Source: an uncultured bacterium
GTDB lineage: Bacteria; Verrucomicrobiota; Verrucomicrobiia; Limisphaerales; UBA8199
DNA: 64,000 nt
Assembly: GCA_963749495.1 (NCBI GenBank)
Contig: CAVVMW010000021.1
Coordinates: 416,001 to 480,000, forward strand
Reading direction: 5' to 3'
Below the pieces are notes generated by a model, which searched no databases, was not told where the DNA came from, and worked only from the letters and a program-made list of their open reading frames with translations. Shown here piece by piece: positions 9,844 through 29,996 of this stretch. Position numbers and translations under genes: made by a program. Within the stretch, counting starts at the first letter, position 1. Each line of letters opens with the position of its first letter.

Positions 9844-9891
9844 GGTTCACGGTTCATGGTTCACGGTTCGCCTTTCACGTTTCACGTTTCA
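9844..9891. repeat. Heptamer tandem block (GGTTCAC / TTTCACG)
   Basis: Seen directly; flanked by a 27-bp direct repeat (9803-9829, 9900-9926). Confidence 0.8.
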
Positions 9892-9921
9892 GCCCTTGAG
9901 ACCTGACAAAGAGGCTTATTG

Positions 9922-10776: not shown

Positions 10777-10831
10777 CGCCCGACGGAAGGATCAACCACG
10801 CATGAATAAACTGAGAAATCCGTCAACCTGA

Positions 10832-11674: not shown

Positions 11675-11703
11675 CGTGGGGCGCCATTCACGCAACTGCC
11701 TGG

Positions 11704-11915
11704 CACCGCGTAGCGGTGCCTGACGGTAGCCGTGGACTTCCAGTCCACGGACTGCTGGCTGGAGAACAGCTTGCGTCGCGTAGCGACGCCTGAAAACAGG
11801 ATCCGCCCGGCCAATGACAAGCTTTCCGGCGTCGCTACGCGACGCGTGCCCCTTCCAACGTCCTGGACCGTGGACCGAGGTCCACGGCTACCTTCACTGC
11901 GTCGCTCCGCGACGC
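11704..11915. repeat. REP-like multi-hairpin element (CGTCGCGTAGCGACG / CCGTGGAC..GTCCACGG)
   Basis: Several hairpins; inverted homologue at 19921-20132. Confidence 0.85.
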
Positions 11916-11965
11916 CCAGCGCCCTGGACCATGGACCGCGTCGCTACGGGACACACCCGCCGCGC

Positions 11966-13234
11966 CTACACGAAGATCGTCTGTTCCCGCCCTGGCCCGA
12001 CCGAGGCGATAGCGAGTTTGGCGCCGGTGAGTTCGGCCAGGGCCTTGAGATAGACGCGTGCTTTGTGAGGCAGGTCCTTCCATTTGCGGGTGTTGTGGAT
12101 CGGGCAACGCCAGCCTGGAAACTCGGCATAGACCGGTTTGCAGCGCTCCAGCACCTCGATGTCGTTGGGCACGTAATCGTAGCGCGCCTTTCCATCCTGG
12201 TAGGCAACGCAGAGACGGATCGTCTCGACGGAATCCAGTCCATCGAGATTGGTCACGGCCAGGTCGTCGATGCCGTTGACGATGGCAGCGTGATGGGTGG
12301 CGACGGCATCGAACCAGCCGCAACGGCGCGGCCGGCCCGTGGTGGCGCCAAACTCGCGGCCCATGGCATGGAGCATGTCGGCTATCTCGGCATTCTCGGT
12401 TGGCAGGGGCCCCTCGCCCACGCGCGTGGTATAGGCCTTCATGACGCCGACGACCCGGTCTATGCGGTGCGGGGGGATGCCGGAGCCGGTGCAGGCCCCG
12501 CCGGCCGTGGTGTTCGAGGAGGTCACGAACGGATAGGTGCCGTGGTCGATGTCCAGAAACGTCCCTTGCGCCCCTTCGAACAGGATGTCGTCGCCCCGCC
12601 GGACCGCCTCGTGCAGGAGGATGACGGTGTTGGTCACCAAGGGCCTGAGGAAATCCCCTGCCGCGCGGTAGGCGGCATGGACCTTTTTGAACGAGAGCGG
12701 TTTGGCGCCGAAGGCCCGGAGGACCTCGTTGTTCTCCCGGATCTTGGCCCGGAGCAGGGTCTCGAACCGCCGGGCATTGATCAGGTCAATGACCCGCAGG
12801 CCGGTGCGCGCGGCCTTGTCGCCGTAGGCGGGCCCGATCCCGCGTTTGGTGGTGCCGATCTTGTTCCTGCCCTTGAGGGTTTCGCGCTGGGCATCCAGTT
12901 CGCGGTGATACGGCAGGACCACGTGCGCCGTCTCGCTCAGGAACAGGTTGCCATCGATCTCGATGCCCAATTTGCGAAGCGATTGGATCTCCTCGACCAG
13001 GCCCACCGGGTCCACGACCACGCCGTTGCCGATCACGCAGATCTTGTTCTTGCGCAATATGCCGGACGGGACCAGGTGGAGGATGTATTTCTGCTCGTTG
13101 AGGTGGACGGTGTGGCCGGCATTGTTGCCGCCCTGGGTGCGGACCACCACGTCCGCCTGCTCGGTCAGCACGTTGATGATCTTGCCCTTGCCTTCATCGC
13201 CCCATTGGGCGCCGACTAGGATGGTATTGGCCAT
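11966..13234 (-). CDS. purA: Adenylosuccinate synthetase
   Basis: GAQWGDEGKGK, QGGNNAGHT, EGAQGTFLDIDHGTYPFVTSS, EFGATTGRPRRCGW. Confidence 0.99.
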   Translation of the reverse strand: MANTILVGAQWGDEGKGKIINVLTEQADVVVRTQGGNNAGHTVHLNEQKYILHLVPSGILRKNKICVIGNGVVVDPVGLVEEIQSLRKLGIEIDGNLFLSETAHVVLPYHRELDAQRETLKGRNKIGTTKRGIGPAYGDKAARTGLRVIDLINARRFETLLRAKIRENNEVLRAFGAKPLSFKKVHAAYRAAGDFLRPLVTNTVILLHEAVRRGDDILFEGAQGTFLDIDHGTYPFVTSSNTTAGGACTGSGIPPHRIDRVVGVMKAYTTRVGEGPLPTENAEIADMLHAMGREFGATTGRPRRCGWFDAVATHHAAIVNGIDDLAVTNLDGLDSVETIRLCVAYQDGKARYDYVPNDIEVLERCKPVYAEFPGWRCPIHNTRKWKDLPHKARVYLKALAELTGAKLAIASVGPGREQTIFV

Positions 13235-13758: not shown

Positions 13759-15225
13759 TTACATAAGACCGAGCTTGCGCAAACGGGCCCTGGTGCGGCG
13801 CGTGTGACGTTTGAGATGATCGCGGAACCTGCGGCGGGGTGCGTTGAGCCGCGGGTATTTGTTTTTCTTGCGTTTGACGGCGCGCGGCTCGCGTCGGTTT
13901 GGCCGCTCGGGGACCAAATCGGCGGCTAGCGTTTCGAGCAGATCGGACCACAGTTGGCGGCGTTTCTTTTTGGAGCGGGCTTGGGCCATGGCCTGGGTAA
14001 AGTGCCGGATTGCGTCCAGCGAGCCTTTGAAGCTGATGCGCTCCAGGGGCACCTCATGTTCGGTGGCGGCCTGAGCCATGGTGCCACGGATGAGATTGTG
14101 GGCGATGAGGCGCGTGTAGGCCTCTTTGCGAACCATGTTCGGGCTGCGCCCGCGGAGGGTCTCCATTTCCAGAGTGGTTTTCAGGTCATCCAGGCACATC
14201 TCCAGGCGCCACCGCCGCAAGTAAGCGCGGAGGATCTGCTCGGCGGGGTAGAGTTCTGGGTCCAAGAGCGTGGTCACCAGTTTGACCTGGCGTACGCGGA
14301 AGCCTTTCTGATAGCAACTGCCCTTGACCACGCGCACCGTCAACTGGCTGGGCAAGCCAATCCATTGGAGCAGCGTCAGCCAGGGAGCCCGGCGCTGGGG
14401 TTTTTCCCACACGAAGAGCCAGTCGTTTCTGCCCAAGCGGCGGAGCCGCCTTCGCCCATCGAGCCGGCGCGTGGACCGCCCGATGAAGTCCACGTTCAGA
14501 AGGTGCTTGAGCCAGGCGAGGACCGCGTAAAAACCGAAGCCGCGGTCTGCCACCAGGATATCCCCGGCCGCCAACTGGGTGCTGAGCAGCGTCAACAACG
14601 ACAGTTCGGAGACCGCCAAGCTGCCTTGGGCCATGGCCAGGATCGCGCCGCTGAGCATGGAAAAGAGCACGACGATGCGCATCTTGGGGAAGCTGGGTTT
14701 GTCGGCGCACTGCATGGGGGGATACGCCCTTCGGTTTTTGCGCGTGTCGGCCAGTGTGAGCGCCGAGCCGTCGGCGGCCTTGAGGGGCCGGCCTTGGAGT
14801 TGGGTCAGGGCCGGGACTTGCTTGTCGGCGGCCCGGGCGGTGGCGGCCAAAACCTTGGGGAATTCCCTGAGAGGCAGCCGGGCCTTGGCGCGGCAGTAGG
14901 CGCCGTCCTCGGGGGAGATCTGGGGGCCGTCTTCCAAGAGGAAGAGGGCCTGGAGTTGGCGCACGACCTCGCGCCCGGAGGCGTCGGGGTTGAGGGCTTG
15001 CCAGACCATGCACCAGAAGGTGCGCCAGCGGGTGTAGTCGCGGTCGCGGCAGTTTTTGTGGGCGGAGGCCTTGGCCTTGGGAAAGCACTCCTGGGGTACC
15101 GAGGAGGAGAAGCACTTTTCCAGTTGGCAGAGGGTATAGGCGCGGACCTGGCGGCAGGCGTGGGCGGTGCGGGAACCCAAGCGGGCCAGGCGAGAGCGCC
15201 AGGGTGCGAAAAAGGGCGTGTGCAT
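13759..15225 (-). CDS. IS4-family DDE transposase
   Basis: AADGS (D), VADRGF (D), YLRRWRLEMCLDDLK (YREK motif); stop codon inside the left inverted repeat. Confidence 0.93.
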   Translation of the reverse strand: MHTPFFAPWRSRLARLGSRTAHACRQVRAYTLCQLEKCFSSSVPQECFPKAKASAHKNCRDRDYTRWRTFWCMVWQALNPDASGREVVRQLQALFLLEDGPQISPEDGAYCRAKARLPLREFPKVLAATARAADKQVPALTQLQGRPLKAADGSALTLADTRKNRRAYPPMQCADKPSFPKMRIVVLFSMLSGAILAMAQGSLAVSELSLLTLLSTQLAAGDILVADRGFGFYAVLAWLKHLLNVDFIGRSTRRLDGRRRLRRLGRNDWLFVWEKPQRRAPWLTLLQWIGLPSQLTVRVVKGSCYQKGFRVRQVKLVTTLLDPELYPAEQILRAYLRRWRLEMCLDDLKTTLEMETLRGRSPNMVRKEAYTRLIAHNLIRGTMAQAATEHEVPLERISFKGSLDAIRHFTQAMAQARSKKKRRQLWSDLLETLAADLVPERPNRREPRAVKRKKNKYPRLNAPRRRFRDHLKRHTRRTRARLRKLGLM

Positions 15226-15245
15226 GTCCAGTATATATACTGGAC
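15226..15245. promoter_or_regulatory. Perfect 20-bp palindrome, putative operator between the divergent IS genes
   Basis: GTCCAGTATATATACTGGAC; overlaps TGGACT-17-TAAAAT (15241-15269). Confidence 0.6.
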
Positions 15246-15277
15246 TATGCTTGACCGGCAAGCTAAAATTGAGGCCG

Positions 15278-15628
15278 ATGAACAAAAATCTGGATAAGGG
15301 CACCGCCTCCTGGGACCGGCAATACGAGCAATTGCGACGCCGTTTGAGCCAAATAGGCTACCTCAGCCAGGGCTCGGTGCAGGACCGCACGCGGCGCTCG
15401 GGCGGAGGTGCCGGTTACCAGTGGACGCGCAAAGTCGCGCAGAAGACGATCACCGTCTCACTAACCCAGGAGGAGTTCGAGCAGATGCGCCAAGCGGTTA
15501 ACCACTACCGACAGGTGCGGGGGCTGTTGCGTGACATGGAGCGGCTGTCCCGCAAGATTATCTTCCAGAGGGCACCTCATCCCCATCAACGCAAGCGCCT
15601 AAGCGCCAAAGTTTTAGGCACTAAGTAA
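15278..15628 (+). CDS. IS accessory protein, DUF6788-like
   Basis: LSQIGYLSQGSV...YQWTRKVAQKTITVSL pattern; stop codon inside the right inverted repeat. Confidence 0.7.
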   Translation: MNKNLDKGTASWDRQYEQLRRRLSQIGYLSQGSVQDRTRRSGGGAGYQWTRKVAQKTITVSLTQEEFEQMRQAVNHYRQVRGLLRDMERLSRKIIFQRAPHPHQRKRLSAKVLGTK

Positions 15629-16511: not shown

Positions 16512-17180
16512 TCATTTTCCTTCCCCCATCTTTCTGCCAACATCGGCCACTGGAGTCCTCCGCCCAATCCGATTTTCCGTGCCGCTGAGCAGCCGCCGGA
16601 TATTGGCCCGGTGCTGATACACCGCCAGCACCGCCATGGCAGCGGTGACGGCTGTGAGCGTGGAGTCCCGCTTGGTCAACCCGGCCGCCAACGGCAGGGC
16701 CACCGCGGCGGCCAGCGAGGCCAGCGAGGCATAGCGGCTCAAGACCAGCACAACGATCCATATAACCAGGATGATGGCCAGCGCCAGCGGCACCAACGCC
16801 GCCACGACGCCCGCGGAAGTGGCGATGCCCTTGCCGCCCTTGAAATAAAGCCAGCAGGTGTAGTTGTGCCCGAGGATGGCGCCGAGGCCGGCGCAAATCT
16901 GCAGCCACTCGGTTGTGTGCGCCCCGTCGGCGGGGGCTAACCAGCCCGAAACCAGTTTGGCCAATACCGCAACCGCCAGCAAACCCTTGGCCGCATCGGC
17001 CAGCAGAACGAACAGGCCCGCGGGCACGCCCAGGTGGCGGAAGACATTCGTGGCGCCGATGTTCCCGCTGCCCACCGAGCGGATGTCAATGCCCCGCGCC
17101 TTGGCCACCAGGAAGCCCGTGGGAATCGAGCCCAGCAAATAGGCGCCCAGCGCCACTACGATGTAACCAACAATCAACAC
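16512..17180 (-). CDS. plsY: Glycerol-3-phosphate acyltransferase PlsY
   Basis: YLLGSIPTG, GSGNIGATN, GHNY...FKGGKGIAT, HRANIRRLL.GTE. Confidence 0.96.
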   Translation of the reverse strand: MLIVGYIVVALGAYLLGSIPTGFLVAKARGIDIRSVGSGNIGATNVFRHLGVPAGLFVLLADAAKGLLAVAVLAKLVSGWLAPADGAHTTEWLQICAGLGAILGHNYTCWLYFKGGKGIATSAGVVAALVPLALAIILVIWIVVLVLSRYASLASLAAAVALPLAAGLTKRDSTLTAVTAAMAVLAVYQHRANIRRLLSGTENRIGRRTPVADVGRKMGEGK

Positions 17181-17455: not shown

Positions 17456-18499
17456 ATGACTACGGACCATGCGCCGCAAGCTCCGGAGAATGTCCGGGTG
17501 TCGGTCCTGGGCGCCGGCTCGCTGGGCAAGGAGCACGCGCGCATCTACGCCGAATTGGCGGCCGGCGGGCTGGCGGACTTCGTCGGCGTGTACGATGTCG
17601 CCGCCGAGACCGCGCGGCGGGTTGCCGGGAAATACGGCGTGCGTGCCTTCGGTTCGGTCGCCGAGGCCGCCGCCGCCTGCGACGCCGCCAGCGTCGTCAC
17701 CCCCACCTCGGCCCATTATGAATTGGCCGGGGGCCTGCTGCGTCAGGGCAAACACGTCCTGGTCGAGAAACCAATGACCGACAGCGCCGCCCGCGCGGCC
17801 GAACTGGTCCAGTTGGCCCGGCAGCAACGCTGCGTCCTCCAGGTGGGCCATGTCGAACGCTTCAACCCCGTCTTCAAATACCTGGAGACCGTCGCCACCG
17901 ACCCGCGCTTCATCGAGGCCCACCGCCTCTCCCCCTACCCTGCCCGGAGCACCAACATCGGCGTGGTGCTCGACCTGATGATCCATGATCTGGACGTCGT
18001 CCTGGCCTTCGTGAAATCGCCCGTGACCAGTGTGGACGCCGTCGGCATCCCCGTTCTGAGCCAGTCGGAGGACATCGCCAATGCGCGGCTGCGCTTCGCC
18101 AACGGCTGCGTCGCCAATCTCACCGCCAGCCGCGTGAGCCCCGAGCGCATGCGCAAGATACGCGTCTTCAGCGGCGGCCCCACTACCAGTTACATCTCGC
18201 TGGACTACCGCGCCCAGGAGGGTTTCATCTATCGCATCGCTCGCAGCAACGAGGCGGAGAGTTCCCTCCTAAAAAAGCTGCTCCACGGCAAAGACACCGC
18301 CATCGTCAGCGAATTCGGCGGCAAACGCATCGTGCGCGAACCGGTCCCCATTGCCAAGGAAGAGCCCCTCAAGCTCGAACTGCAGGACTTCGTCCAATGC
18401 GTTCGCGCCCACCGGACACCGTTGGTCAGCGGCGAATCGGCCAAGCGCGCCCTGGACCTCGCCTTTGAGATTACGAGCCAGATTCGGGAGCTGCCGTGA
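17456..18499 (+). CDS. Gfo/Idh/MocA oxidoreductase, GnnA-like
   Basis: VLGAGSLG, HVLVEKP, VGHVERFNP, VVLDLMIHD; overlaps the lpxB start. Confidence 0.85.
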   Translation: MTTDHAPQAPENVRVSVLGAGSLGKEHARIYAELAAGGLADFVGVYDVAAETARRVAGKYGVRAFGSVAEAAAACDAASVVTPTSAHYELAGGLLRQGKHVLVEKPMTDSAARAAELVQLARQQRCVLQVGHVERFNPVFKYLETVATDPRFIEAHRLSPYPARSTNIGVVLDLMIHDLDVVLAFVKSPVTSVDAVGIPVLSQSEDIANARLRFANGCVANLTASRVSPERMRKIRVFSGGPTTSYISLDYRAQEGFIYRIARSNEAESSLLKKLLHGKDTAIVSEFGGKRIVREPVPIAKEEPLKLELQDFVQCVRAHRTPLVSGESAKRALDLAFEITSQIRELP

Positions 18500-19845
18500 G
18501 ACCCAGGAGCCTCATGCTGATCGCCGGCGAGGCCAGCGGCGACACACTCGCGGCGGAGTTGGTCCAGGCCCTCCGCCTGGAATTCGGGCTGGCGCTGGCG
18601 GCGGCGGCCCCCAGCCGGGATTCCCAGCCCTTGCGCGCCGGGCTGGAGCCGCGCTTTTTCGGCGCCGGCGGCCCGCGCATGGCCGCCGCGGGAGTCGAGT
18701 TGGCCTTCGATATGACTGCCCATTCGGTCCTCGGGTTGTCGGACGTGCTGCGGGACCTTCTGAAATTCCGCCGGCTCTTCGACCGTTTGTTCGGCCTGGC
18801 CCTGGACCGCCAGCCCGACGCCATCATCTGCGTGGATTTCTCCGGCTTCAATCGCCGCTTTGCCCATGCTGTCCGCAACTACACCCGATCCCGCTGCGAT
18901 TGGTTTCACGACTGGAACCCCAGGCTCATCCAGTACGTCTCACCCCAGGTCTGGGCCTCGCGCGAAGGGCGCGCCCGCAAGATGGCGCGGGACTGTGATT
19001 TGCTGCTGAGCATCCTCCCTTTCGAAAGGGCCTGGTTCGCGCAGCGCCTGCCCGCCTTCCGGGTCGAGTTCGTCGGCCATCCCATGGTGGACCGCTGCGC
19101 GGGGCCAGTGGGGCAGACCTCTGGTCTGCCGGTTAGGGGGGCCTCTGGCCCCGTGGGTGCCGAGTTGCCGGGCGCGCCGTCTGCCAAGATCGACACGCCT
19201 CCAGAGGAGGCGCTAACCGGCAGACCAGAGGTCTGCCCCACGGTCCTGCTCCTGCCCGGCAGCCGCCCCGGCGAGTTGCGCCGCCATCTGCCCGTCCTGC
19301 TCGAGGCCGCCAGGCTGATTGCCGCAGAATTGCCCGCCTCGTTCCGCATGATCCTCCCCGACGAGACCCTGGCCAGGTCCGTCCAATCGCTGCTCACCCG
19401 GGCGCAAGGCCAGGCCCCGCCCCTCCCTATCCAGGTCCAGACCGGCGGGCTTGCCGAGGCGCTCGCCCGGGCGGACCTGGCTTTGACCAAGTCCGGCACG
19501 ATCACCCTCGAGTGCGCCTTCTTCGGCGTGCCTGCGATCGTGTTCTACAAGACATCCCTGATCACTTACCTCGCCGCAAAACAGATCGTCAAAGTGAAGT
19601 ACATCGCCATGCCCAACCTGCTGGCGGGCCAACCGCTCTTCCCCGAGTTCATCCAGGGCGCCGCCACGCCCCGGAACATCGCCCGTGCCGCCGTGGCGCT
19701 CCTGCGCGACGAACCGCGCCGCGCCGCCATCAAAGCCCGCGTCGCCCAAGTCGTCTCCGCCCTTGGCCCTGCCGGCGCCAGCCGCCGCGCCGCCCGCGCC
19801 ATCGTCCGGCTCCTGGAGGGCGAGGGTCCAGTGCCACCAAGGTGA
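18496..19845 (+). CDS. lpxB: Lipid-A-disaccharide synthase (with in-frame REPIN insert)
   Basis: IAGEASGD, VDFSGFN, YVSPQVWA, ILPFE, FVGHP, LLPGSR, KSGTITLE, MPNLL. Confidence 0.95.
   Translation: MRPRSLMLIAGEASGDTLAAELVQALRLEFGLALAAAAPSRDSQPLRAGLEPRFFGAGGPRMAAAGVELAFDMTAHSVLGLSDVLRDLLKFRRLFDRLFGLALDRQPDAIICVDFSGFNRRFAHAVRNYTRSRCDWFHDWNPRLIQYVSPQVWASREGRARKMARDCDLLLSILPFERAWFAQRLPAFRVEFVGHPMVDRCAGPVGQTSGLPVRGASGPVGAELPGAPSAKIDTPPEEALTGRPEVCPTVLLLPGSRPGELRRHLPVLLEAARLIAAELPASFRMILPDETLARSVQSLLTRAQGQAPPLPIQVQTGGLAEALARADLALTKSGTITLECAFFGVPAIVFYKTSLITYLAAKQIVKVKYIAMPNLLAGQPLFPEFIQGAATPRNIARAAVALLRDEPRRAAIKARVAQVVSALGPAGASRRAARAIVRLLEGEGPVPPR
19108..19241. repeat. REPIN-like element inside the lpxB coding sequence
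   Basis: Perfect 29-bp inverted repeats GTGGGGCAGACCTCTGGTCTGCCGGTTAG at 19108-19136 and 19213-19241. Confidence 0.9.
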
Positions 19846-20447: not shown

Positions 20448-21704
20448 ATGAACGACATTCGTCCGCGTTGGTTTGAGCGCAACCTCCAATCCGCCCTCCG
20501 AGTGCTGCCCGTGACGGTCGTCACCGGCGCGCGGCAGACGGGCAAGACGACCCTGGTCAAGTCCCTTGGACCCGGCCGCGCCTACTTCACGCTGGATGAG
20601 GTCGGCGTGTTGGACCAAGCCGAGCGCGATCCCGACGCCCTGCTCCGCAGCCGGCCGGTCACGCTCGATGAAGTGCAGCGCACTCCGCCCCTGCTCCTGG
20701 CCGTCAAGCGGGCGGTGGACGAGCGCCGGCGCGCGGGTGATTTCCTGCTCACCGGCTCCGCCAACCTGCTCCTCATGGGCCGCGTGGCCGACACGCTGGC
20801 CGGGCGCGCGATCTACCTCGAACTGCCGCCCTTCTGCCCGTCGGAATGGCAGCAACGAAGGGACGCCCTCCTGCCGCTCGACCGCCTCTTTGCGGCCGAC
20901 TTCGACTTCCGGGAGTGGCCGGCTCAAACCGGCGACTGGCCAGGTTGGCTCCTGCGGGGCGGCTTCCCTCCGGCGCTCGCCATCGCGGGCGACGCCGATC
21001 GCGCGCTGTGGTTTTCCGCCTACGTCCAGACCTACCTGGAGCGCGATCTCCGTCAATTGAGCGCGGTGTCCAGCCTGCCGGACTTCCAAAGGGTGATGGC
21101 GCTGGCCGCTCACCGGGTGGGCCGGTTGCTCAACCAGGCCGACATCGCCCGCAACGCCGCGCTGCCCCATCCCACCGCGCACCGCTACCTGAACCTGCTG
21201 GAAACCGGCTGCCTGGTCACCCGCATCCGCCCCTTTGCCACGAACCCGTCCATTCCGCTCGTCAAGGCGCCCAAGCTGTTCTGGACCGACTGCGGCCTCG
21301 CGGCTTCCCTGGCTGGCATCAAGACCCCGGCGGACTTGGCCAACCGTCCCGACACGGGTTTCTGGCTGGAACAGACTCTCTTCCAGACGCTGCAAACCTG
21401 GCGCGCGTTGGAGCCGCTTGGGCGCAAACTCCATTTCTGGCGGGACCGGTCGGGACGTGAGGTTGATTTCGTTCTCGAACAGGGCGGAAAGCTGGTCGCA
21501 CTGGAAATCAAAACCGCCAGCACGGTCACCAGTGCCGACGCGGCTGGCATCCGGGCGTTTCGCGATTCGCTCACGAGGAAATCGGCGCTCGTGCGCAGCG
21601 CTGTGTTTCACGCCGGTCAAGCTCGCCCGCTGGACACCGACATCCTCGCGCTGCCTTGGGGATGGATGGTGGCCGCACTAGAGTCCTTGAATTTCAAAAC
21701 GTGA
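20448..21704 (+). CDS. AAA+ ATPase with DUF4143 domain
   Basis: TGARQTGKTT, LDEVQR, LLTGSA, YVQTYLERD, VKAPKL, EVDFVLE...LEIK. Confidence 0.9.
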   Translation: MNDIRPRWFERNLQSALRVLPVTVVTGARQTGKTTLVKSLGPGRAYFTLDEVGVLDQAERDPDALLRSRPVTLDEVQRTPPLLLAVKRAVDERRRAGDFLLTGSANLLLMGRVADTLAGRAIYLELPPFCPSEWQQRRDALLPLDRLFAADFDFREWPAQTGDWPGWLLRGGFPPALAIAGDADRALWFSAYVQTYLERDLRQLSAVSSLPDFQRVMALAAHRVGRLLNQADIARNAALPHPTAHRYLNLLETGCLVTRIRPFATNPSIPLVKAPKLFWTDCGLAASLAGIKTPADLANRPDTGFWLEQTLFQTLQTWRALEPLGRKLHFWRDRSGREVDFVLEQGGKLVALEIKTASTVTSADAAGIRAFRDSLTRKSALVRSAVFHAGQARPLDTDILALPWGWMVAALESLNFKT

Positions 21705-21721
21705 TGCAGACAGGTCAAGTT

Positions 21722-21776
21722 TGTGGCACGGGCATCCTGCCCGTGGGGGGGGCTTGGGCAGGATGCCCGAGCCACG
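21722..21776. repeat. GTGG-type REP doublet
   Basis: GTGGCACGGGCATCCTGCCCGTG...GGGCAGGATGCCCGAGCCAC. Confidence 0.7.
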
Positions 21777-21849
21777 GTCTGAGGCCCTGCCTCTCTAGAA
21801 GAATCGTGCCAGGACCGGCGGGGATAAAACTGACCTCCTTGAGCTTCAA

Positions 21850-21987
21850 GTTGAGAGGCGCATCTTTTTGCTCCGTGGCCTCAGGGTCATGTTCGACTAC
21901 GACCTCGCTGAGCTTTACGGTGTGGAGACCAAGGCCCTGAACCGTGCCGTTAAGAGGAATGTCGAGCGTTTTCCAGACGACTTCATG
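21850..21987 (+). pseudogene. ORF6N-domain remnant (N-terminal half)
   Basis: VERRIFLLRGLRVMFDYDLAELYGVETKALNRAVKRNVERFPDDFM, then truncated. Confidence 0.8.
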
Positions 21988-21991
21988 TGTG

Positions 21992-22303
21992 CTAAAGGAG
22001 GCCATCTCGCCTCAACTCCGCTTTGAACTGCTCGTGCGGGATGGTCGGTTCCTCCCGCCGTTCTGCTATCGCGGCGAGATCGTCGAGGTCCTCCAGCATC
22101 TTTTCATAATCCGTGATGGGGAGCACCACGGCCGTTTTCTTGCCGGCCTCGTCGGTCAGATACCGAAGCGATTGGGCGTCAATGGGCACAAGGACAGCCA
22201 CCGGTTCCCCCTGCGCCGTGACAACCAGGTCGCCGGCCCTGGCCGCCTCGCGCCATTGCTCCGTTGGCTTCCGCTTCAGCTCACTAACCGTGATCGTGCT
22301 CAT
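21992..22303 (-). CDS. Orphan, apparently chimeric antitoxin (Phd/YefM-like N-terminus)
   Basis: ITVSELK...DLVVTAQGEPVAVLVP fused to YLTDEAGKKTAVVLPI..YE..LEDL.DL. Confidence 0.65.
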   Translation of the reverse strand: MSTITVSELKRKPTEQWREAARAGDLVVTAQGEPVAVLVPIDAQSLRYLTDEAGKKTAVVLPITDYEKMLEDLDDLAAIAERREEPTIPHEQFKAELRRDGLL

Positions 22304-22444
22304 GGCTGCAATCTACCCCATTCGGGACGCCTCCCGCAAGCTGGCGCTGATGCGGAGGATGGTCCTTCGAGAACGGGGTCAGCCAACCCATAGCATGGTT
22401 CGCACCGTCGCGGAACCACACCAAGCTATGGGCTGACCCATAAT

Positions 22445-22685
22445 TCGAGTTCGTCGGCCATCCCGTGGTGGACCGCTGTGCAGCGCCAGGCACTGGCGGG
22501 GCGCAGGCATCTTTGTCCCAACCTTTGTCGCAGCCTTTGTCGCAACCTTTGTCGATTTGGGCGGGTTTTCGACAAAGGTTCCGACGAAGGTTTCGACAAA
22601 GACACCAGAGGTCACCCCAAGCGCCTGACGGTGGGGCCGGAGTGAGGGGCTGCTCACCCGGGCCGAAGGCCAGGCGCGGCCCCTC
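22445..22685 (+). pseudogene. Decayed internal duplicate of lpxB
   Basis: 22445-22489 matches 19064-19108 (41/45); 22649-22685 matches 19389-19425 (33/37); colinear and same strand. Confidence 0.8.
22510..22601. repeat. 12-mer tandem/inverted repeat (ACCTTTGTCGCA family)
   Basis: Forward and reverse arrays; also at 25526-25559 and 25820-25852. Confidence 0.8.
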
Positions 22686-22700
22686 GACCCCGCCCCTCGG

Positions 22701-23834
22701 TCACGCCGCCTGGCGCTGGGCGGGGCGGGCGGGGATGCCGGCCAGGCGGGCCAGTTCGCGGTGGAGGCGGGCGACACGTTCGACCTGGCCCTTGGCGGCA
22801 AACCGCTCGTAAAAGCCCTCGTTGCGGAAGTCGCGCACGTGCTCGGTCCATGGGGAGAGCCGCTGACGCCAGCGGTCGAGGCGGCCCTCTTCGGGGGCGG
22901 CGTCCTGGGCGGCGAGATCGGCGCAGACGCGGATCATGGCCTTGAGGGTGACCGGTTTGGTGACCATGTGGCTGTCATTGCCCCAGGCCTCCTCGAAGAC
23001 CTGCGAGGCGGCCTTGAGAAAATCGCCGACGCAGTCGTAATAGCGGGCCGCCGCCCGTTTGTCGGCGCCTTCGGGCTCGATTTGCTGCCAGTCCTGTTTG
23101 ACCCAGCGATGGATTTCGTTGAACAACTCCGCCTGGAGGATCCACTTGTCCTGTTTGCTGCGGCCACCCAGGCGGTTGATGCGATACCGCAGCGGGCTGT
23201 CCCCCTGGCTGTAGAGCATCTGGACGACCCGCGCCGCGAACCGGCGGTCCGGCTCCGCCCAGGACACCCGCTCGTAGAGGTCCACCAGGTGGCTCTTGTT
23301 GATGCGCGTGGGCGTCGAGTTGATGATGACGAACATCTCCGCGGCAAAATCCTCGCTCCGCCCGTCGAAGATGACGCACGGCACATAGATCGACTTGGCC
23401 TCGTCCGGGTGCGTCCGCTCGTAGAACTGCAGCGCGGCCAGCCGGTGCTGCCCGTCTATGATCAGGAATTTCTCCGCCGGGTCCGGGAGGTTGCCCACCG
23501 TCTGGTTTCCCGCCAGCAACTCGAATTGGAGCTTCTCCGGCGTGAACAGCAGCACCGTGCCCGGTATCGGCGGCTGGCTCACGGCCGTCTCGTAGAAGTT
23601 GCGGATGGCGCGCACCTTCGAGCGCGAGAGCAACCGCTGGAAGGCCTTCTCGCTCCGCTCGACCCGCCCAATGAATTGCGCCACGTCGTCCTCCGCCGCC
23701 GCCTCTTCGGGCTTGATCTCCTCGCCCTCGTCGTAAAAACGGCTGATGAACCGCACCCGGCCCAGCAGGTCCTCCGACGGATAAGCCACGAAATAAAACA
23801 CCGCGTCCTTCTGCCGTATCTGCGTTGCGATCAT
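22701..23834 (-). CDS. DGQHR-domain (DndB-like) protein
   Basis: FQRLL...V..I, IIDGQHRLAAL, MFVIINST. Confidence 0.88.
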   Translation of the reverse strand: MIATQIRQKDAVFYFVAYPSEDLLGRVRFISRFYDEGEEIKPEEAAAEDDVAQFIGRVERSEKAFQRLLSRSKVRAIRNFYETAVSQPPIPGTVLLFTPEKLQFELLAGNQTVGNLPDPAEKFLIIDGQHRLAALQFYERTHPDEAKSIYVPCVIFDGRSEDFAAEMFVIINSTPTRINKSHLVDLYERVSWAEPDRRFAARVVQMLYSQGDSPLRYRINRLGGRSKQDKWILQAELFNEIHRWVKQDWQQIEPEGADKRAAARYYDCVGDFLKAASQVFEEAWGNDSHMVTKPVTLKAMIRVCADLAAQDAAPEEGRLDRWRQRLSPWTEHVRDFRNEGFYERFAAKGQVERVARLHRELARLAGIPARPAQRQAA

Positions 23835-23973
23835 TTCTGCGCCTTTCGTTGAAACTGCACCCGGTTCGCCAATGCGCCCGGCCCTCGTAAAACCCGACGC
23901 GTCCGGCCTGGCGCGTTCGCCATCGAGGGCCATCTTAATCCGGCTCCGCCCGGAAGACAAGACCAGGCGAGTC

Positions 23974-24108
23974 GTAGCGCAGGTTTCCAAACCTGCTGTA
24001 TCGCCGATTTCCAATCGGCAGGGCGTCGGCATATCGAGCGCCCCCGATTTGCCGACGGCCTGCGGGTTTGGAAACCCGCGATACGGCAGGTTTGGAAACC
24101 TGCGCTAC
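23974..24108. repeat. GTAG-type REPIN
   Basis: GTAGCGCAGGTTTCCAAACCTGC...GCAGGTTTGGAAACCTGCGCTAC. Confidence 0.88.
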
Positions 24109-24207
24109 GCTGGCGCCCCGGGGCGCACAGGCGCGCCGAGCGACTCTGTCAATGGCCCTGCCCCGTCCCTCGGCGGTCCCCACTTCTTGCTTGCGGCATG
24201 ACAAAAC

Positions 24208-25515: not shown

Positions 25516-25626
25516 AGCAGGGGAGACCTTTGTCGCAGCCTTTGTCGAAACCTTTGTCGGACCGGCCATGTTGCGATTAGATTAGACCTTGGTTCATAAG
25601 TAATCGGACACGCATACACCTCGCAC

Positions 25627-25728
25627 AAAAGCGGCAGAGGACTGCCGCACTCCAAAACGCTTCGCGAAGCAGGGATGCGGCCGAGGTCGCGCTAGCGTCT
25701 TGGAGTGCGGCAGTCCTCTGCCGCTTTT
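25627..25728. repeat. REP doublet AAAGCGGCAGAGGACTGCCGCACTCCAA
   Basis: Inverted pair; family members at 36527, 40807 and (degenerate) 46020. Confidence 0.85.
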
Positions 25729-25880
25729 CCTCGCAAACCCAATCTCTAAGCCCGTGCCGAGGGGCAGAGATTCCTGTTGTTGACCTTCGATTTCTGGCTT
25801 CCTGTGAACGGAGACCTAACGACAAAGGCTGCGACAAAGGTTGCGACAAAGGTCCGGAGCTGGGGTTTTTGGGCCGCGCG

Positions 25881-27014
25881 TTACCTGAAGCGGGTTTGCT
25901 CGAAGCGCGCGTAATCCTTCATCATCTGCTCGGTGGCGCTGGGGGGGATGGTTTTCAGCGCGCACTCGATGTCCTCGGGGGTGAGCAGGTTGGAGCCGCC
26001 GCCGATCGCGCGGCGGAAGCCGGCCCGCTTGGCGCTTTGGATAATGGCGACGATGTCCGACCCGGTGTAGCCGTTGAGCCTCGGCGCCAGGGCCGGGGGG
26101 TTCACCGCCGCATCGACCGGGGCGGCGCCGAGCTGCTTCTTGAGCATGAACTCAATCGCCGGCTCATCGGGCAGGCCGACGAAGATCTTCTCGTCGAACC
26201 GGCCGGTGCGGAAGACGGCGTCATCGATGTCCCAGGGTTTATTGGTGGCGCCCAGCAGGAGCAGGACGTTGGGGGACTCGACGAATCCGCCGATCTCGGC
26301 CAGGAACTGGACGACCAGGCGGTTGTCCACCACGGAGTTGCCGCCCCGGCGCGGGAGCAGGCCGTCCACGTCATCCAGGAAGAGGACGCTGACCGCCTGG
26401 GAGCGTGCGGCCAGGATGAGCTTGCGCAGGCGCTGCTCGGATTCCCCATGCCATTTGCTGCGGATCTCGGCGCCGGTCGCGTAAAAAAAGGCCGCGTCCA
26501 ATTCCCCCGCCACCGCCTTGCCCAGGGTGGTTTTGCCGTTGCCCGGCGGGCCAAAAAGGAGCAGGCCGCCGCCGGCGCGGATGCCCCATTCCCTGGCCTT
26601 GTCCGGGTGCCGCATCGGTTCGATGACCATCTCATCCAGCTTGGTCTTGACATCGTCCATGCCAGCGATGTCGTTCAGACGCACGTTGGGCTTGTCGGTG
26701 ACCAGCCAGTCTTCGCTGCCCTCGGCCGCCTCCCCTTTGCCTGCGGGTTGGTCGCTCACCGGTTGGCGGGCCCGGCTGGACGAATCGGCGCCGGCGGCTT
26801 TGGCCTTCTGCTGCAACTCCTCGGCAATCTCGACCAGGTCTCGAGCCTCGGTCACAAAACCGCGCCGGATCCGGCCGTCGGTCTTGTCCGAGAGCTTGAG
26901 GGCGAACTCGGCCGCCTTGGCCATGTGGAAGGCCCCGCCTCGCAAATTGCCCTCCTGCATCGCCGTTTCGGCGGCGGCCGCATGTTCACGCTTTTTATCG
27001 GCATCGAAGCTCAT
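25881..27014 (-). CDS. Single-ring AAA ATPase with MIT-like N-domain (Vps4/CdvC-like)
   Basis: KPNVRLNDIAG, GPPGNGKT, SKWHGESE, LFLDDVD, ATNKPWDID, C-terminal TPEDIECALKTIPPS; doubled AAGGAGG ribosome-binding site. Confidence 0.9.
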   Translation of the reverse strand: MSFDADKKREHAAAAETAMQEGNLRGGAFHMAKAAEFALKLSDKTDGRIRRGFVTEARDLVEIAEELQQKAKAAGADSSSRARQPVSDQPAGKGEAAEGSEDWLVTDKPNVRLNDIAGMDDVKTKLDEMVIEPMRHPDKAREWGIRAGGGLLLFGPPGNGKTTLGKAVAGELDAAFFYATGAEIRSKWHGESEQRLRKLILAARSQAVSVLFLDDVDGLLPRRGGNSVVDNRLVVQFLAEIGGFVESPNVLLLLGATNKPWDIDDAVFRTGRFDEKIFVGLPDEPAIEFMLKKQLGAAPVDAAVNPPALAPRLNGYTGSDIVAIIQSAKRAGFRRAIGGGSNLLTPEDIECALKTIPPSATEQMMKDYARFEQTRFR

Positions 27015-27047
27015 TGTTCCTCCTTGGACCTCCTTGGTTCACCCGCA

Positions 27048-27962
27048 TTAGGTCTCCAGCCTCAGCGCAAAGGTCATAATCGAGACATTGTAGGCAAAGG
27101 CCAGGCCCGCCAGCAGGAGGAACAACGCCGCCGAGAACCAGGACGAAAAGCCGACCTCAAGCATCACCAAGGCCATGAGGACATCGACAGCCAGGTAAAT
27201 CCCCAGCGTGAAGGCATTCGAGCGGTTCGACCCCTTGCGCACCATGGTGCGGATGAATGAGATGGTGAGGACCGGGAGCAGCAGGACGATGGCCGCCCAG
27301 ATGAAGAGCCGCCGCGCCCAGGCCATCCGCTGCACCGGCGCCGGCGGGTCCAGCGCCGCTACGGCGGCCGCCGCCGTTGCACCGGGCGCCCCGGGCTTGG
27401 TCTCGTTATTGTAATGGCGCGTGAAGACCGTATCGCCGCTGCCCACCTCGGCCAGAGTCAGGTCGAGGTCGAGCCTGGCGCCGCCCGGATAGGACTCGAA
27501 GCTGTTGATCTTGCCGAAGAGCACCCCCTGCGCCCCGGAGCCGCCGGCCTGACGCTGCGCCTGGCCCGGCTCGGTCGGCCCCTGGACGCGCAGGTGCAGG
27601 GCCTTGCGGAGCCTGTCCCAGAGCCGCTCCTGGCGCACGTCGAAGACGCCGCTCTGCTCCAGCGCCGAGCGCAAGTGGTCGCTGACATAATCGCTCGGGT
27701 CATTGGCCAGGTGCAGCAGGACGACCGACCCGACGGGGGCCTTGGCTTTGCGCAGGTCCTCGACGATGAGCGGGACCATTTCGTTTGCCGTCTGTTTGCG
27801 CAGCATCCCCACCTCGGGCTTCGTGGGGCCGATGTAAAACCAGCCCTGCAACAGCAGATAACCCGCCAGGGCGGCCACGCCCAGGAACACGAGCAATCTG
27901 AACAGCCAGGTTACCGGATGGCGAACGACGCTGACAGGGGTTTCATATAATGTTCTTAACAT
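27048..27962 (-). CDS. Membrane protein: N-terminal TM, CsgG/LpoB-like alpha/beta domain, three C-terminal TM helices
   Basis: Hydrophobic segments; pattern VVLLHLAND...L.SALEQSG.F.V...GAQGVLFGKI...LDL.LAEV..G..VF. Confidence 0.75.
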   Translation of the reverse strand: MLRTLYETPVSVVRHPVTWLFRLLVFLGVAALAGYLLLQGWFYIGPTKPEVGMLRKQTANEMVPLIVEDLRKAKAPVGSVVLLHLANDPSDYVSDHLRSALEQSGVFDVRQERLWDRLRKALHLRVQGPTEPGQAQRQAGGSGAQGVLFGKINSFESYPGGARLDLDLTLAEVGSGDTVFTRHYNNETKPGAPGATAAAAVAALDPPAPVQRMAWARRLFIWAAIVLLLPVLTISFIRTMVRKGSNRSNAFTLGIYLAVDVLMALVMLEVGFSSWFSAALFLLLAGLAFAYNVSIMTFALRLET

Positions 27963-27980
27963 AGGCTCTCGCTTTCGCTC

Positions 27981-28638
27981 TTAGTGTTCATTGCCGTCGA
28001 TGATGCTCCGGGCCCGCCGCCGCAGGTCGGTGGTGTCCCCGGCCTCGGCCGTCTTTTGGACGGCCCCGCGTTCCCTGGAGGGCGATTCGCTCTCCTGCTG
28101 TGCGCCCACCTCGTCTTCGAGGTCCTTGAACATCTGGTCGATCGACGGGATGGTCTCGGCCATCGAGGTCTGGACCCCGTCCATCTCCTTGCCGTGCATC
28201 TTCTCCCAGAACGCGGTCGGTGTCCACCTGGTCGCCCAGCTTGTCCTCGACCTCGCCCAGCACGTCGGCTACGGAATCCGGATCGATCCTGACCACGGTG
28301 TTGATGGCCCCCAGGGCGCCGGAGAATTCCTGGTCGGTTTTGGCCATCTCCAGCTTGGCGAGCAATTGCTCGAAGACCCAGCGTTTCATCTCCAGCTTGG
28401 ACATCATCAACTCGCTGGCGCGGCAGGTCTGGAGGTTGCGCTGGGCGGCGGCCTTCTGGCCGTCCCGAAGGTAGCTCCGGGCATCGGCCCAGGCCTTGTC
28501 GCGGTCCGTCTTGAGCTTCTTGATGCGGTCCTTCACGGCATCCACCGCGCCCTCCGCCTCGCGAAAAGCCCTCCGCCGTCTGCTCCTGCCTTCGCGCTCG
28601 CGCTCTTGTCGGGATTTGAATAGGTCTTGAACGGCCAT
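27981..28638 (-). CDS. ESCRT-III (CHMP2/Snf7)-like coiled-coil protein (frameshift near 28215)
   Basis: About 218 aa after joining ORFs 27988-28725 and 27981-28199; basic helical hairpin, acidic C-half, terminal DTTDLRRRARSII. Confidence 0.75.
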
Positions 28639-28758
28639 AACTTTGGTTCTTTCAGATTTTCTTGGGTTAATTGGTTGGTTTTGTCGCTCCGGGCCAGCTT
28701 TCAAACGCCTCGTTTCTGCGTGCAAGGGGATGTGACATTCTCAATCTCTTTTCCTTCC

Positions 28759-29361
28759 TCACTCCAGCTCCAATTGCTTGAGCAACTTCAAGTCGTCCTG
28801 CGAAAAATGGCGGGCGGCGCCGCCCTGCGCGGGCATCTCGTGGAGCTCGCCCTCGCTGTTTTCGGAGGCGAACACCGCCGGCTTGTGTTTGATCTTCTGC
28901 AAATCCGTGAGGGCCTCGTTGGCCTCCTCGACGCGGTCCAAGGCCTCCTCCAATTGCACCGCGATGGCATCCAGGTCCTCTCCTTTGACCCCGCGCCCAA
29001 TGGCGTTTTCCAATTCGCCGAGCTTTTCCAGGGCCATGGTGTTGGCCTCGATGCTCGCCAGCAGGAAATCGCCCGGCCCTTCCATCCGGCTCAACTGCCT
29101 CAAGTCCATCTGGATTTCCTTGGCCAGGAGCCTCTGGTTCAAACCGCCGGTCCGGTCGTACTTCGCCTTTTTGTCTCGAATCCGCTTTTCGTGCTGCGTG
29201 ATCTCCTCCCGCAGCCCGTCCAGGCGGTCCTGGTTGCCGGCGCGATTCCGGGCCAAGCTGTCCCTCCAGAGCCTCAACTGCTCCTTCTCCCCGGGCCGCA
29301 GCCCCAGCCCTCGAGCCAGGCGCGAAGCCACCGAACCGATAAAATCGCTAAAATTCTCCAT
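28759..29361 (-). CDS. Second all-helical ESCRT-III-like protein
   Basis: 200 aa; amphipathic N-helix, basic coiled coil, acidic C-half, terminal DDLKLLKQLELE. Confidence 0.65.
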   Translation of the reverse strand: MENFSDFIGSVASRLARGLGLRPGEKEQLRLWRDSLARNRAGNQDRLDGLREEITQHEKRIRDKKAKYDRTGGLNQRLLAKEIQMDLRQLSRMEGPGDFLLASIEANTMALEKLGELENAIGRGVKGEDLDAIAVQLEEALDRVEEANEALTDLQKIKHKPAVFASENSEGELHEMPAQGGAARHFSQDDLKLLKQLELE

Positions 29362-29757: not shown

Positions 29758-29800
29758 AGCGAGGGCGCACCTTAGTACTACCGGACGCAAATACGGTGAC

Positions 29801-29937
29801 GTAGCGCAGACCTCCGAGTCTGCTGTATCGCCGACTTCCAAGTCGGCTGCGCGTCCGTGAAGGCACGCGCGTCCGCACCTCGGTTGGCCCGCAGGTTTGG
29901 AAACCTGCGAGACAGCAGACTCGGAGGTCTGCGCTAC
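29801..29937. repeat. GTAG-type REPIN
   Basis: GTAGCGCAGACCTCCGAGTCTGC...GCAGACTCGGAGGTCTGCGCTAC. Confidence 0.88.
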
Positions 29938-29996
29938 CCTGGCGGCGGCCCTGCCGCGCATCGAGGATACGTCATCGTATTTATGAAACGGCCCAC

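Follow-up and report, generated by a model that had tools for sequence, protein, structure and literature searches.

Snf7-type ESCRT-III proteins and the ATPase Vps4 are placed in archaea and eukaryotes by the relevant sections of previous accounts, in which bacteria are credited only with PspA and Vipp1 and with no Vps4-like partner (PMC7619361, PMC11188069, PMC8281802); a Vps4-like ATPase is said there to appear absent in bacteria (PMC7619361). The preliminary description of the locus reported here started from the same view. The reviews agree with it, but it needs qualifying, because parts of the survey of Ravi et al. (2024, mSystems, PMC11237479) list bacterial MIT+Vps4-like ATPases as well as Snf7/PspA-AAA+ pairings of other architectures.

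The module to which our locus belongs resembles the archaeal CdvB/CdvC loci (euryarchaeal 'Main', 'Halo_FHA' and 'Meth_adaptin'), as presented in part of Makarova et al. (2024, PMC11188069), in the placement of a snf7 gene directly upstream of an ATPase gene. The two also have in common a single-cassette AAA ATPase whose N-domain is small and helical and which has a C-terminal helix, and more than one ESCRT-III-like subunit. A set of partners comprising Ser/Thr kinases, FHA proteins and a zinc-ribbon SPFH protein, described there for euryarchaeal ESCRT loci, recurs in related bacterial loci. Unlike the archaeal systems, the module is hosted by bacteria, in which the section concerned calls such homologues not identifiable (PMC11188069). 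Furthermore, no winged-helix (ESCRT-II/CdvA-like) or adaptin-like gene was present among its scanned ORFs, Pfam does not detect MIT in its N-domain, and it includes a four-TM protein of its own, joined in many loci by caspase-like proteases.

Two bacterial arrangements are also related, as far as they are described in parts of PMC11237479. The ATPase type of Opitutus terrae ACB74714.1, found in Verrucomicrobia, Planctomycetes and other bacteria and inferred by the authors to result from archaeal transfer, is like ours a Vps4-like single AAA ATPase adjoining a membrane protein. In that type snf7 is displaced by a TPR plus 6TM protein, whereas the module contains a true Snf7 and the ESCRT-III-like protein hA (see below). 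Its membrane partner lacks a TPR and carries four TM segments together with a sub-threshold LpoB-like domain; by description, these traits set the two apart. The second arrangement, the PspA/TM-Snf7/tandem AAA+/PBPB-OmpA/ABC operons, similarly links a bacterial ESCRT-III superfamily member to a classical AAA+ ATPase, and a role in ATP-driven remodelling was proposed for its tandem (inactive and active) AAA+ operons. These operons encode PspA together with a Snf7-like protein that is signal-peptide/TM-anchored; their ATPase has two cassettes, and a transporter is included (PMC11237479). In the module, by contrast, Snf7 is soluble and 218 aa long, the ATPase has one cassette and a helical domain at its N-terminus, hA is present and a transporter is absent. 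With PspA/Vipp1 and PspF it would share an ESCRT-III superfamily polymer at the bacterial inner membrane; unlike PspA/Vipp1, it shows no PspA_IM30 match. PspF is a bEBP transcription factor and not a disassembly ATPase.

We found no description of the four-gene module in the papers that we searched, in agreement with the preliminary description. Our analysis largely supported the ESCRT-III/Vps4-like reading first given to the operon: it is probably a bacterial membrane-remodelling module made of ESCRT-III and an AAA ATPase, of the archaeal/eukaryotic Snf7/Vps4 type rather than of the PspA/Vipp1 type. It would thus bring together Snf7 and a dedicated single-ring AAA ATPase, two components that as a pair are generally attributed to archaea and eukaryotes alone.

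Organization of the locus

The stretch of DNA that we analysed (the window) comprises 64,000 nt of contig CAVVMW010000021.1. The organism is a verrucomicrobium and therefore belongs to the PVC group, as had been proposed from the letters alone. The block of interest (25881-29361) consists, as initially described, of four co-oriented genes, all on the minus strand in the ORF listing (Table 1), with gaps of 120 nt between hA and the Snf7-like gene, 18 nt between the latter and the membrane protein gene, and 33 nt between this and the AAA ATPase gene. Its flanks encode a Na+/H+ exchanger, a DndB-like protein, a Phd antitoxin and a GH127 protein, confirming that the block is unrelated to its neighbours.

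Table 1. Features of the operon and its surroundings (positions in the window)
Feature	Position	Strand	Basis and remarks
Single-cassette classical AAA ATPase, 377 aa	25881-27014	-	ORF listing, domain search, AlphaFold model
Membrane protein, 304 aa	27048-27962	-	ORF listing, hydropathy
Snf7-family ESCRT-III gene	27981-28638	-	Pfam Snf7; interrupted by a one-base insertion at ~28210
hA, 200-aa all-helical protein	28759-29361	-	ORF listing
Terminator-like hairpin and T run	25631-25648	-	Consensus match only; ~230 nt past the ATPase stop
Palindromic intergenic repeat element	29800-29944	no strand	Upstream of hA; second copy at 23973-24109
Two inverted arrays of the 12-nt unit CCTTTGTCGNAN	25527-25559 and 25820-25852	no strand	Downstream of the ATPase

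An interrupted Snf7-family gene

The preliminary description had reported two helical proteins of about 200-220 aa. This is correct for hA, but the Snf7-like gene is not a single open frame. It runs in one frame from 28638 to about 28210 (143 codons) and continues in the +1 frame from 28208 to 27981 (75 codons and a stop), the latter segment encoding the conserved C-terminal part. Without the extra base the product would have 218 aa, the usual length in the family.

This 218-aa protein scored 28.0 bits with Pfam Snf7 (PF03357; E 2e-6), a small margin over the cut-off of 27.3, with residues 32-146 aligned to profile positions 10-129; a scan of the genome gave 27.9 bits. PF03357 was also precomputed for about half of 120 listed homologues. 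When the family profile was compared with PDB sequences, yeast Snf7 accounted for four of the top five rows, the best solved relative being 5fd7 (E 2.8e-4, 23-138 versus 11-133). The match is collinear and spans 115-120 residues. PspA_IM30 (PF04012) gave no match at E<=1 with either helical protein. On these sequence comparisons, the 218-aa helical protein is a member of the Snf7 family of ESCRT-III, and the relation claimed for it stands. The basic N-half and acidic C-half noted earlier were found in both helical proteins (+9/-14 in the intact Snf7 orthologue of genome G003, +5/-12 in hA). The conserved terminal motif of Snf7, IGEGRxRLKDLLEGDK, presumably resembles the MIM1 consensus.

A two-frame alignment located the one-base insertion at 28210 relative to all 12 intact homologues, each of which is encoded in a single frame. 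A related metagenome contig, with about 92% identity, also has one base fewer at this position. Programmed +1 frameshifting was ruled out, given the 12 single-frame homologues and this close relative without the extra base. Because of the frameshift, the module may be inactive in this genome, or the assembly may be wrong by one base. We consider it possible, though we would not favour it, that the operon is a decaying remnant here, its Snf7 gene being a pseudogene and the module no longer working. Such a decay would agree with the insertion itself, with the fact that a genome scan found no second Snf7 copy, and with the absence at this site of the accessory protease and kinase genes of other loci. 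However, the reading frame remains open for the 75 codons past the shift, which still match the orthologous tails of L018, L023 and L026, and the other three genes are intact. The assembly is a draft (31 contigs) and could contain a single-base error in a TT run; the only evidence of the shorter form is one contig of low depth and of a different strain. Since the copy in the window may be defective, the interest lies in the family rather than in the locus itself.

The second helical protein and the membrane protein

The model of hA (pLDDT 86, pTM 0.76) starts with an alpha0 helix (2-16), followed by a hairpin (23-70 and 73-123), a helix (127-157), a disordered acidic linker and a terminal helix (188-199). 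Alignment of the tails revealed a conserved C-terminal motif, ...LSxxxxxRLKQLE. As modelled, hA thus has the helix layout, the charge asymmetry and the conserved C-terminal helix of an ESCRT-III-like protein. Its family counts 257 cluster representatives. Pfam assigned no family to hA, and no Snf7 or PspA match was present among the families listed for 81 members. Comparison with the neighbouring Snf7 family by hhalign gave collinear but not significant alignments (probabilities 2.3%, 6.2% and 5.0%), and no significant link of sequence or fold to ESCRT-III was found for hA. The proposed ESCRT-III membership therefore holds for the Snf7-family protein, while for hA it is the layout, and not homology, that is ESCRT-III-like.

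The third protein is a membrane protein, as had been recognized, with hydrophobic segments at 15-44, 213-242 and 248-300 in the hydropathy plot. These correspond to one TM segment at the N-terminus and about three more in a conserved block at the C-terminus; the soluble domain between them, of about 170 aa, is probably periplasmic by the positive-inside rule. LpoB matched this domain with an E value of 0.004 (17.4 bits, under the cut-off of 22.3).

The AAA ATPase

The ATPase has one AAA cassette and an N-domain with three helices, again as first described; in the AlphaFold model these helices (3-20, 24-43 and 48-76; pLDDT ~90) precede a disordered linker (76-100). The Walker A motif is GPPGNGKT, the Walker B motif LDDVD, with Asp replacing the usual Glu, and the pore loop KWHG. 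A modelled C-terminal helix (362-375) aligns to the end of Vps4 chains. Two features of Vps4/CdvC enzymes were found: a single classical AAA cassette with pore loop and SRH, and a gene adjoining ESCRT-III genes. Sequence models were less specific. The NCBIfam CdvC equivalog scored 178.6 bits against a cut-off of 650, and CDC48 195.1 bits; four relatives that we tested behaved similarly. Pfam Vps4_C (PF09336) matched seven of 13 relatives (best E 1.1e-5) and did not match the ATPase of the window. The top matches of the cassette were p97/VAT D2, the ATPase is as similar to spastin and archaeal Vps4 as to p97 D2, and in fold searches with the whole protein the AAA cassette filled every list.

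Pfam MIT had no match at E<=1 on this ATPase or elsewhere at the locus. It was also absent from the best 25 families listed for the 13 relatives and from all 11 homologues of the N-domain. A profile of the N-domain retrieved no MIT chain among solved structures, the rows being a weak HEPN match (1ufb, E 0.027) and two chance ones. The single pointer to MIT came from the nearest Atlas clusters (language-model neighbours of the N-domain), which carry it.

A protein of another kind also has to be considered: a Cdc48-like unfoldase that carries a helical adaptor domain and acts at the membrane on unrelated coiled-coil substrates or adaptors, for instance in protein extraction or quality control, the Snf7 match being a coiled-coil artefact. 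A Pfam score barely over threshold, the p97/VAT D2 matches of the cassette and the undetectable homology of hA are what one would then expect. Yet the Snf7 match recurs in about half of the listed homologues, runs in order over 115-120 residues and is led by yeast Snf7 in the PDB comparison, and chance would hardly account for so tight and conserved a pairing, for the shared helices at the C-termini and for FHA/kinase/SPFH partners like those of archaeal ESCRT loci. We regard this explanation as very improbable and retain the ESCRT-III reading.

Proposed mechanism

If the module works as an ESCRT-III system, the Snf7-like protein and hA would bind the cytoplasmic membrane through short N-terminal hydrophobic or basic segments and co-polymerise there, while the four-TM protein, with its probably periplasmic domain, would place or sense the site. 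A hexamer of the ATPase could recognise, through its MIT-like N-domain, the C-terminal helices of Snf7 (...GxxR[LAV][KR]x[LIV][LIM][ED]G) and hA (...RLKQLE), and thread subunits through its pore, resulting in turnover or constriction of the polymer. The role would be regulated membrane repair, scission or vesiculation, and in most other genomes the module would be wired to caspase-like proteases or to Ser/Thr kinase/FHA/zinc-ribbon SPFH proteins. As a compact and widely transferred bacterial operon, a true Snf7 with hA, its single-ring AAA ATPase and the membrane protein would represent a minimal and genetically tractable system of polymer turnover. It would also allow one to test whether Vps4-type disassembly arose once and was then transferred, or is older.

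Conservation and genomic neighborhood

The linkage of the four genes was borne out in other genomes. Snf7 adjoins the ATPase in 22 of 25 other loci and is one gene apart from it in one more, the loci being spread over Verrucomicrobiota, Planctomycetota, Chloroflexota, Hydrogenedentota, Desulfobacterota, Lentisphaerota and Kiritimatiellota. hA and the membrane protein (the latter in 16 of the 25) usually accompany the pair, in varying order.

Elsewhere the module usually adjoins caspase-like proteases, or else Ser/Thr kinases, FHA and zinc-ribbon/SPFH proteins. No such gene lies near the copy in the window, so that the claim of a self-contained system applies to this copy, which stands alone, but not to most other genomes. 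Peptidase_C14 or CHAT genes lie no more than about 6 kb from the module in seven of the 25 loci (L014, L018, L019, L022, L025, L049 and L057), papain-like proteases in L021 and L049, and DUF4384 in L015, L020 and L049; the scans of neighbouring domains covered 42 of the 82 and 62 of the 86 ORFs listed. Both C14 matches of genome G003 and three of the four of G043 flank the module. The module occurs patchily, in 12 of 401 sampled genomes and 10 of 185 genera of the phylum. Yet the Snf7 protein shares 65-70% identity between phyla, as one would expect if it belonged to an accessory module that had been transferred. A plasmid or phage origin was rejected: the G003 Snf7 protein had no match in plasmids and phages, nor did the family alignment in viral contigs.

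These neighbours raise the question of whether the module serves as effector in a system of conflict, defence or programmed death, or repairs the damage made by one. A caspase-like protease or a kinase cascade would then switch on the ESCRT-III-like subunits, for example by cutting the disordered acidic linker and removing an autoinhibitory tail to which the ATPase would bind, and uncontrolled polymerisation would damage or seal membranes. The nearby proteases, the patchy distribution of a well-conserved Snf7 and, in the window, the adjoining DndB/DpdB-like gene and antitoxin are in line with this. Several results speak against it. A known defence system was excluded, since PADLOC matched only IetA/TRIP13-type AAA models on the ATPase and no model on the helical or membrane proteins. 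The IetA match (95.6 bits; NCBIfam IteA 90 bits, cut-off 510) was weaker than those of generic AAA models, and the block contains no protease gene in the ORF listing that could provide the IetS partner, which argues against an IetAS system. In addition, no copies were found in plasmids, phages or viral contigs, the only C14 gene of the window's genome lies 135 kb from the module, and the sections of conflict-system surveys reached by term searches do not mention ESCRT, Snf7 or Vps4. Cleavage of the linker is pure inference. On balance we find a conflict or defence function unlikely.

Still more speculative, and to us less credible, is the extension that several bacterial phyla possess a true ESCRT-III/Vps4 machine of archaeal type, coupled to caspase-like proteases or kinase/FHA/SPFH sensors, in which the protease would cut the ESCRT-III linker and remove the tail recognised by the ATPase, so converting a reversible repair polymer into an irreversible device for scission or suicide. 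If this were true, Snf7/Vps4 would not be limited to the archaea and the eukaryotes, and prokaryotes would have an equivalent of the connection that exists in animals between ESCRT and regulated cell death. The membrane-remodelling module that we favour would itself provide an unexpected connection of ESCRT-like remodelling with bacterial caspase-like proteases and Ser/Thr signalling.

Repeats around the operon

The block had been described as bracketed by repeats. Repeats do flank it, loosely, but further copies are found at 22510-22602 (12-nt arrays) and at the second site of the palindromic element. As they recur at other intergenic sites, they are dispersed repeats and not boundaries of the operon, and boundaries of a mobile element were ruled out on the same grounds. 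The 12-nt arrays had nine matches in the window, compared with zero expected. The terminator-like hairpin downstream of the ATPase is one arm of a 35-nt inverted repeat (25627-25728).

Gene content of the block

The source genome, that of a PVC bacterium (Verrucomicrobiota), is an 11.4-Mb draft of 31 contigs, in which the window is C21:416001-480000. The four co-oriented genes proposed in the preliminary description to be a bacterial ESCRT-III/Vps4-like operon (25881-29361) were all found as minus-strand genes, separated by 120, 18, and 33 nt, and this reading of the module is largely supported. The observation of the block itself is real, save for a frameshift and for over-read repeats.

Features of the window and of other loci carrying the module
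Feature	Position	Strand	Remark
hA	28759-29361	minus	200 aa
Snf7-like gene	start 28638	minus
Membrane protein	27048-27962	minus	304 aa
AAA ATPase	25881-27014	minus	377 aa
Walker B	26370-26393		ATPase residues 208-215
Terminator-like hairpin	25648-25631		3' of the block
12-nt unit arrays	22510-22602, 25527-25559, 25820-25852		inverted pairs
Palindrome, 35-nt perfect stem	25627-25728		surrounded by inner array pair
Palindromic element, ~140 nt	23973-24109, 29800-29944		both intergenic
Accessory-gene islet	20448-24032		just downstream of block
DUF4143/AAA_14 ATPase	20448-21704		islet
Phd/YefM-RelB antitoxin	21992-22303		islet
DGQHR protein	22701-24032		islet
DDE_Tnp_1 transposase	13759-15303		514 aa
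PlsY	16512-17180		housekeeping
LpxB	18496-19845		housekeeping
Locus L014, mobile element	2211-3617
Locus L019, mobile element	279-1976
Locus L024, mobile element	4076-5473
Locus L019, caspase-domain protein	3801-4823		directly 3' of ATPase
Locus L027, 355-aa protein	10528-11595		near module
Locus L057, module with two Snf7 paralogues	8441-12553

The Snf7-like protein scored 28.0 bits against Pfam Snf7 (cut-off, 27.3). A word-indexed search returned 344 homologues; among the 120 listed (65-100% identical), about half carried a precomputed Snf7 domain, and the few with a named source came from Planctomycetota, Hydrogenedentes, Thermodesulfobacteriota, and others. When the family profile was compared with solved chains, yeast Snf7 occupied the top four rows (5fd7, E 2.8e-4, spanning alpha1-alpha4), and neither PspA nor Vipp1 was among the matches. 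The first half of the protein is basic, the second half is acidic, and the C-terminus is a conserved helix, IGEGRxRLKDLLEGDK. Sequence comparison strongly supports membership of the Snf7 family, in line with the suspected relation to ESCRT-III.

Two helical proteins of about 200-220 aa had been announced. This held for hA, while the second gene is broken by a frameshift that had gone unseen. Its frame-A product aligns with 12 intact homologues (215-242 aa) until '...DTD', and the last 75 conserved residues ('WEKMHGKEM...') are encoded in the +1 frame. In one 508-nt metagenome contig, about 92% identical, the sole indel is a single base missing at 28210, one T of a coding-strand TT pair; removing this T gives the usual family length (218 aa). 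Because the segment past the frameshift has kept its likeness to the tails of its nearest orthologues (loci L018, L023, and L026), the extra base would be either a recent insertion or an assembly error. No second Snf7-like copy was found in the source genome.

As described, the ATPase has a single AAA cassette (PF00004, E 2.6e-33) and a three-helix N-domain; it also has a lid domain. In its model (pLDDT 82), a disordered linker (76-100) joins helices 3-20, 24-43, and 48-76 to the cassette, and a terminal helix spans 362-375; no beta-domain insertion is seen. The cassette scored 195 bits with CDC48 and 179 bits with CdvC, the latter far under the CdvC model's cut-off, and four relatives tested behaved similarly; for the L023 ATPase (74% identical) the CdvC alignment was full-length, N-domain included. 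Structurally, the cassette was about equally close to p97 D2 (29.1), Spastin (26.9), VAT (26.8), and Metallosphaera Vps4 (26.8; rmsd 2.6, 257 aligned, 35% identity, alignment extending to the last residue). Pfam Vps4_C matched 7 of 13 family members, the window's ATPase not being one of them. Pfam MIT had no match in this ATPase or its locus and was not among the top families listed for its relatives, and the N-domain profile retrieved no MIT chain and one weak HEPN protein among solved chains; the nearest language-model clusters to residues 1-80 carry MIT (0.84, 0.81). In its modelled architecture the ATPase is Vps4-like, a candidate member of that family, and its N-domain would be MIT-like by architecture alone.

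The Walker B motif of the window's subclade has DD in place of DE. LDDVD or LDDLD, with Asp for the catalytic Glu, occurs in 6 of 23 family ATPases (window, L018, L023, L026, L051, and L053), the others having DE. Since the variant is kept within subclades, it is probably functional, perhaps with slow hydrolysis.

No Pfam or NCBIfam family matched hA, although modelling predicts an all-helical, ESCRT-III-like layout. In an exhaustive profile search, 257 cluster representatives reached E<=0.001 and 57 reached E<=1e-30; almost all measure about 200 aa, indicating a real family. The AlphaFold model (81-sequence alignment, pLDDT 86, pTM 0.76) begins with an amphipathic helix (residues 2-16) and continues with a long helical hairpin, its arms at 23-70 and 73-123, and another long helix (127-157); an acidic linker that is disordered leads to a terminal helix (188-199). 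It is by this predicted architecture alone that hA appears ESCRT-III-like. In kinase/FHA-type loci L051, L053, L054, L056, and L058, hA is replaced by longer relatives (~300-340 aa), and near the module in L027 lies the gene for a protein that combines Cys-rich motifs at its N-terminus with an extended coiled coil; all of these might be additional subunits of ESCRT-III-like or adaptor type.

The membrane protein, also recognized previously, has one N-terminal hydrophobic segment, a soluble domain (~170 residues) whose LpoB-like match falls below threshold, and a highly conserved C-terminal hydrophobic block. The loop past the second segment is strongly basic; by the positive-inside rule, the soluble domain would probably face the periplasm.

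Conservation of the module

The gene linkage recurred elsewhere. In a scan of species-representative genomes, 13 loci were found in Verrucomicrobiota, Anaerolineales, Phycisphaerae, Planctomycetaceae, Hydrogenedentota, Desulfobacteraceae, Lentisphaerae, and Kiritimatiellales. Snf7 adjoined the ATPase in 12, the 13th being cut by a contig end; the membrane protein was present in nine and hA in eight. Even sampling of the phylum (401 genomes) yielded 11 new loci, with Snf7 adjoining the ATPase in nine (plus one with one intervening gene), the membrane protein in seven, and hA in nine, five times in the longer form. Support for a conserved Snf7-ATPase pairing is strong. The Snf7 family was present in 12 of these 401 genomes (10 of 185 genera). 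In two genomes of the same genus, G003 and G001, all four genes are present and run membrane-hA-Snf7-ATPase, versus hA-Snf7-membrane-ATPase in the window; identity between their ATPases and that of the window is just 40-45%. High cross-phylum identity and patchy spread indicate horizontal transfer; no copies were found in plasmid, phage, or viral collections.

The ATPase tree splits into two main clades plus a divergent group, and the Snf7 tail type tracks the ATPase clade. This fits a putative tail-ATPase contact; shared operon descent predicts the same pattern.

In L057, a verrucomicrobial locus, two Snf7 paralogues flank hA (Snf7-hA-Snf7-ATPase-membrane, then a caspase-domain gene), recalling archaeal multi-subunit ESCRT-III sets. 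Three loci have mobile-element insertions next to or within the module: in a Planctomycetaceae contig, hA and Snf7 are parted by an IS66 transposase (Pfam), and in G003 and a Phycisphaeraceae contig, group II intron reverse transcriptase-like ORFs, judged by eye, lie upstream.

Neighbouring genes in other loci

An unexpected result came from the neighbours, for which 42 of 82 listed ORFs of the first set, a further one in L015, and 62 of 86 of the second set were scanned. The loci fell into two themes. The protease theme comprised Peptidase_C14 (L014, two; L018; L019; L022, three; L049, four; L057), CHAT (L025), papain-like proteases (L021, L049), and DUF4384 (L015, L020, L049). The signalling theme comprised Ser/Thr kinases (10 loci), frequently as fusions with double zinc ribbons and FGE-sulfatase domains, FHA proteins (five loci), and zinc-ribbon plus Band_7/SPFH proteins (three loci). 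Both caspase-domain matches of G003, and three of four in another genome (G043), adjoin the module. The L019 caspase-domain protein has a C-terminal GYF_2 domain, and other module-linked caspases bear FGE-sulfatase, LRR, TPR, or Lcl_C domains, a variety that suggests varied sensor modules.

The window's copy has no protease, kinase, FHA, or SPFH partner beside it, and the sole C14 gene of its genome is 135 kb away. Self-containment is not general, since most other loci lie beside such genes. Kinase, FHA, and zinc-ribbon SPFH partners are also described for euryarchaeal ESCRT loci in passages of Makarova et al. 2024 (PMC11188069). These common partners strengthen the ESCRT reading and point to a shared origin or transfer.

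Comparison with published systems

Passages of a 2025 review (PMC7619361) state that bacteria appear to lack a Vps4-like ATPase, of Makarova et al. 2024 that ESCRT homologues are not identifiable there, and of Liu et al. 2021 (PMC8281802) that Snf7-type proteins belong to archaea and eukaryotes. The earlier statement that PspA and Vipp1 have no Vps4 partner agrees with such reviews, but Ravi et al. 2024 (PMC11237479) list 'MIT+Vps4-AAA -> TPR+TM' pairs of bacteria, which they describe as having snf7 displaced, and PspA/TM-Snf7/tandem-AAA operons. Neither type, as presented there, shares the module's architecture. By term search, ESCRT, Vps4, and DUF4384 were absent from two surveys of caspase-containing conflict systems (Snf7 was checked in one only). 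As presumed, full-text searches gave no prior description, though web-app tables or supplements might list the module.

Surroundings of the window's copy

The block is, as noted, unrelated to its neighbours (a Na+/H+ exchanger, DndB/DpdB-like protein, Phd/YefM antitoxin, DUF4143 ATPase, and GH127 arabinofuranosidase). The repeats said to bracket it were over-read, similar arrays and palindromes occurring beyond it (22510-22602 and 23973-24109). The 12-nt unit CCTTTGTCGNAN has nine matches in the window versus 0 expected; its arrays may be REP- or MITE-like. The ~140-nt palindromes, with arms of 41-42 nt that are 90-93% complementary, seem to represent a repeat family dispersed in the source genome. 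In the islet, no obvious toxin ORF was called with the antitoxin, and the DGQHR protein matched PADLOC DpdB (E 3e-16) and Pfam DndB, with no further dnd/dpd genes nearby. The DDE_Tnp_1 gene lies amid housekeeping lipid/LPS genes.
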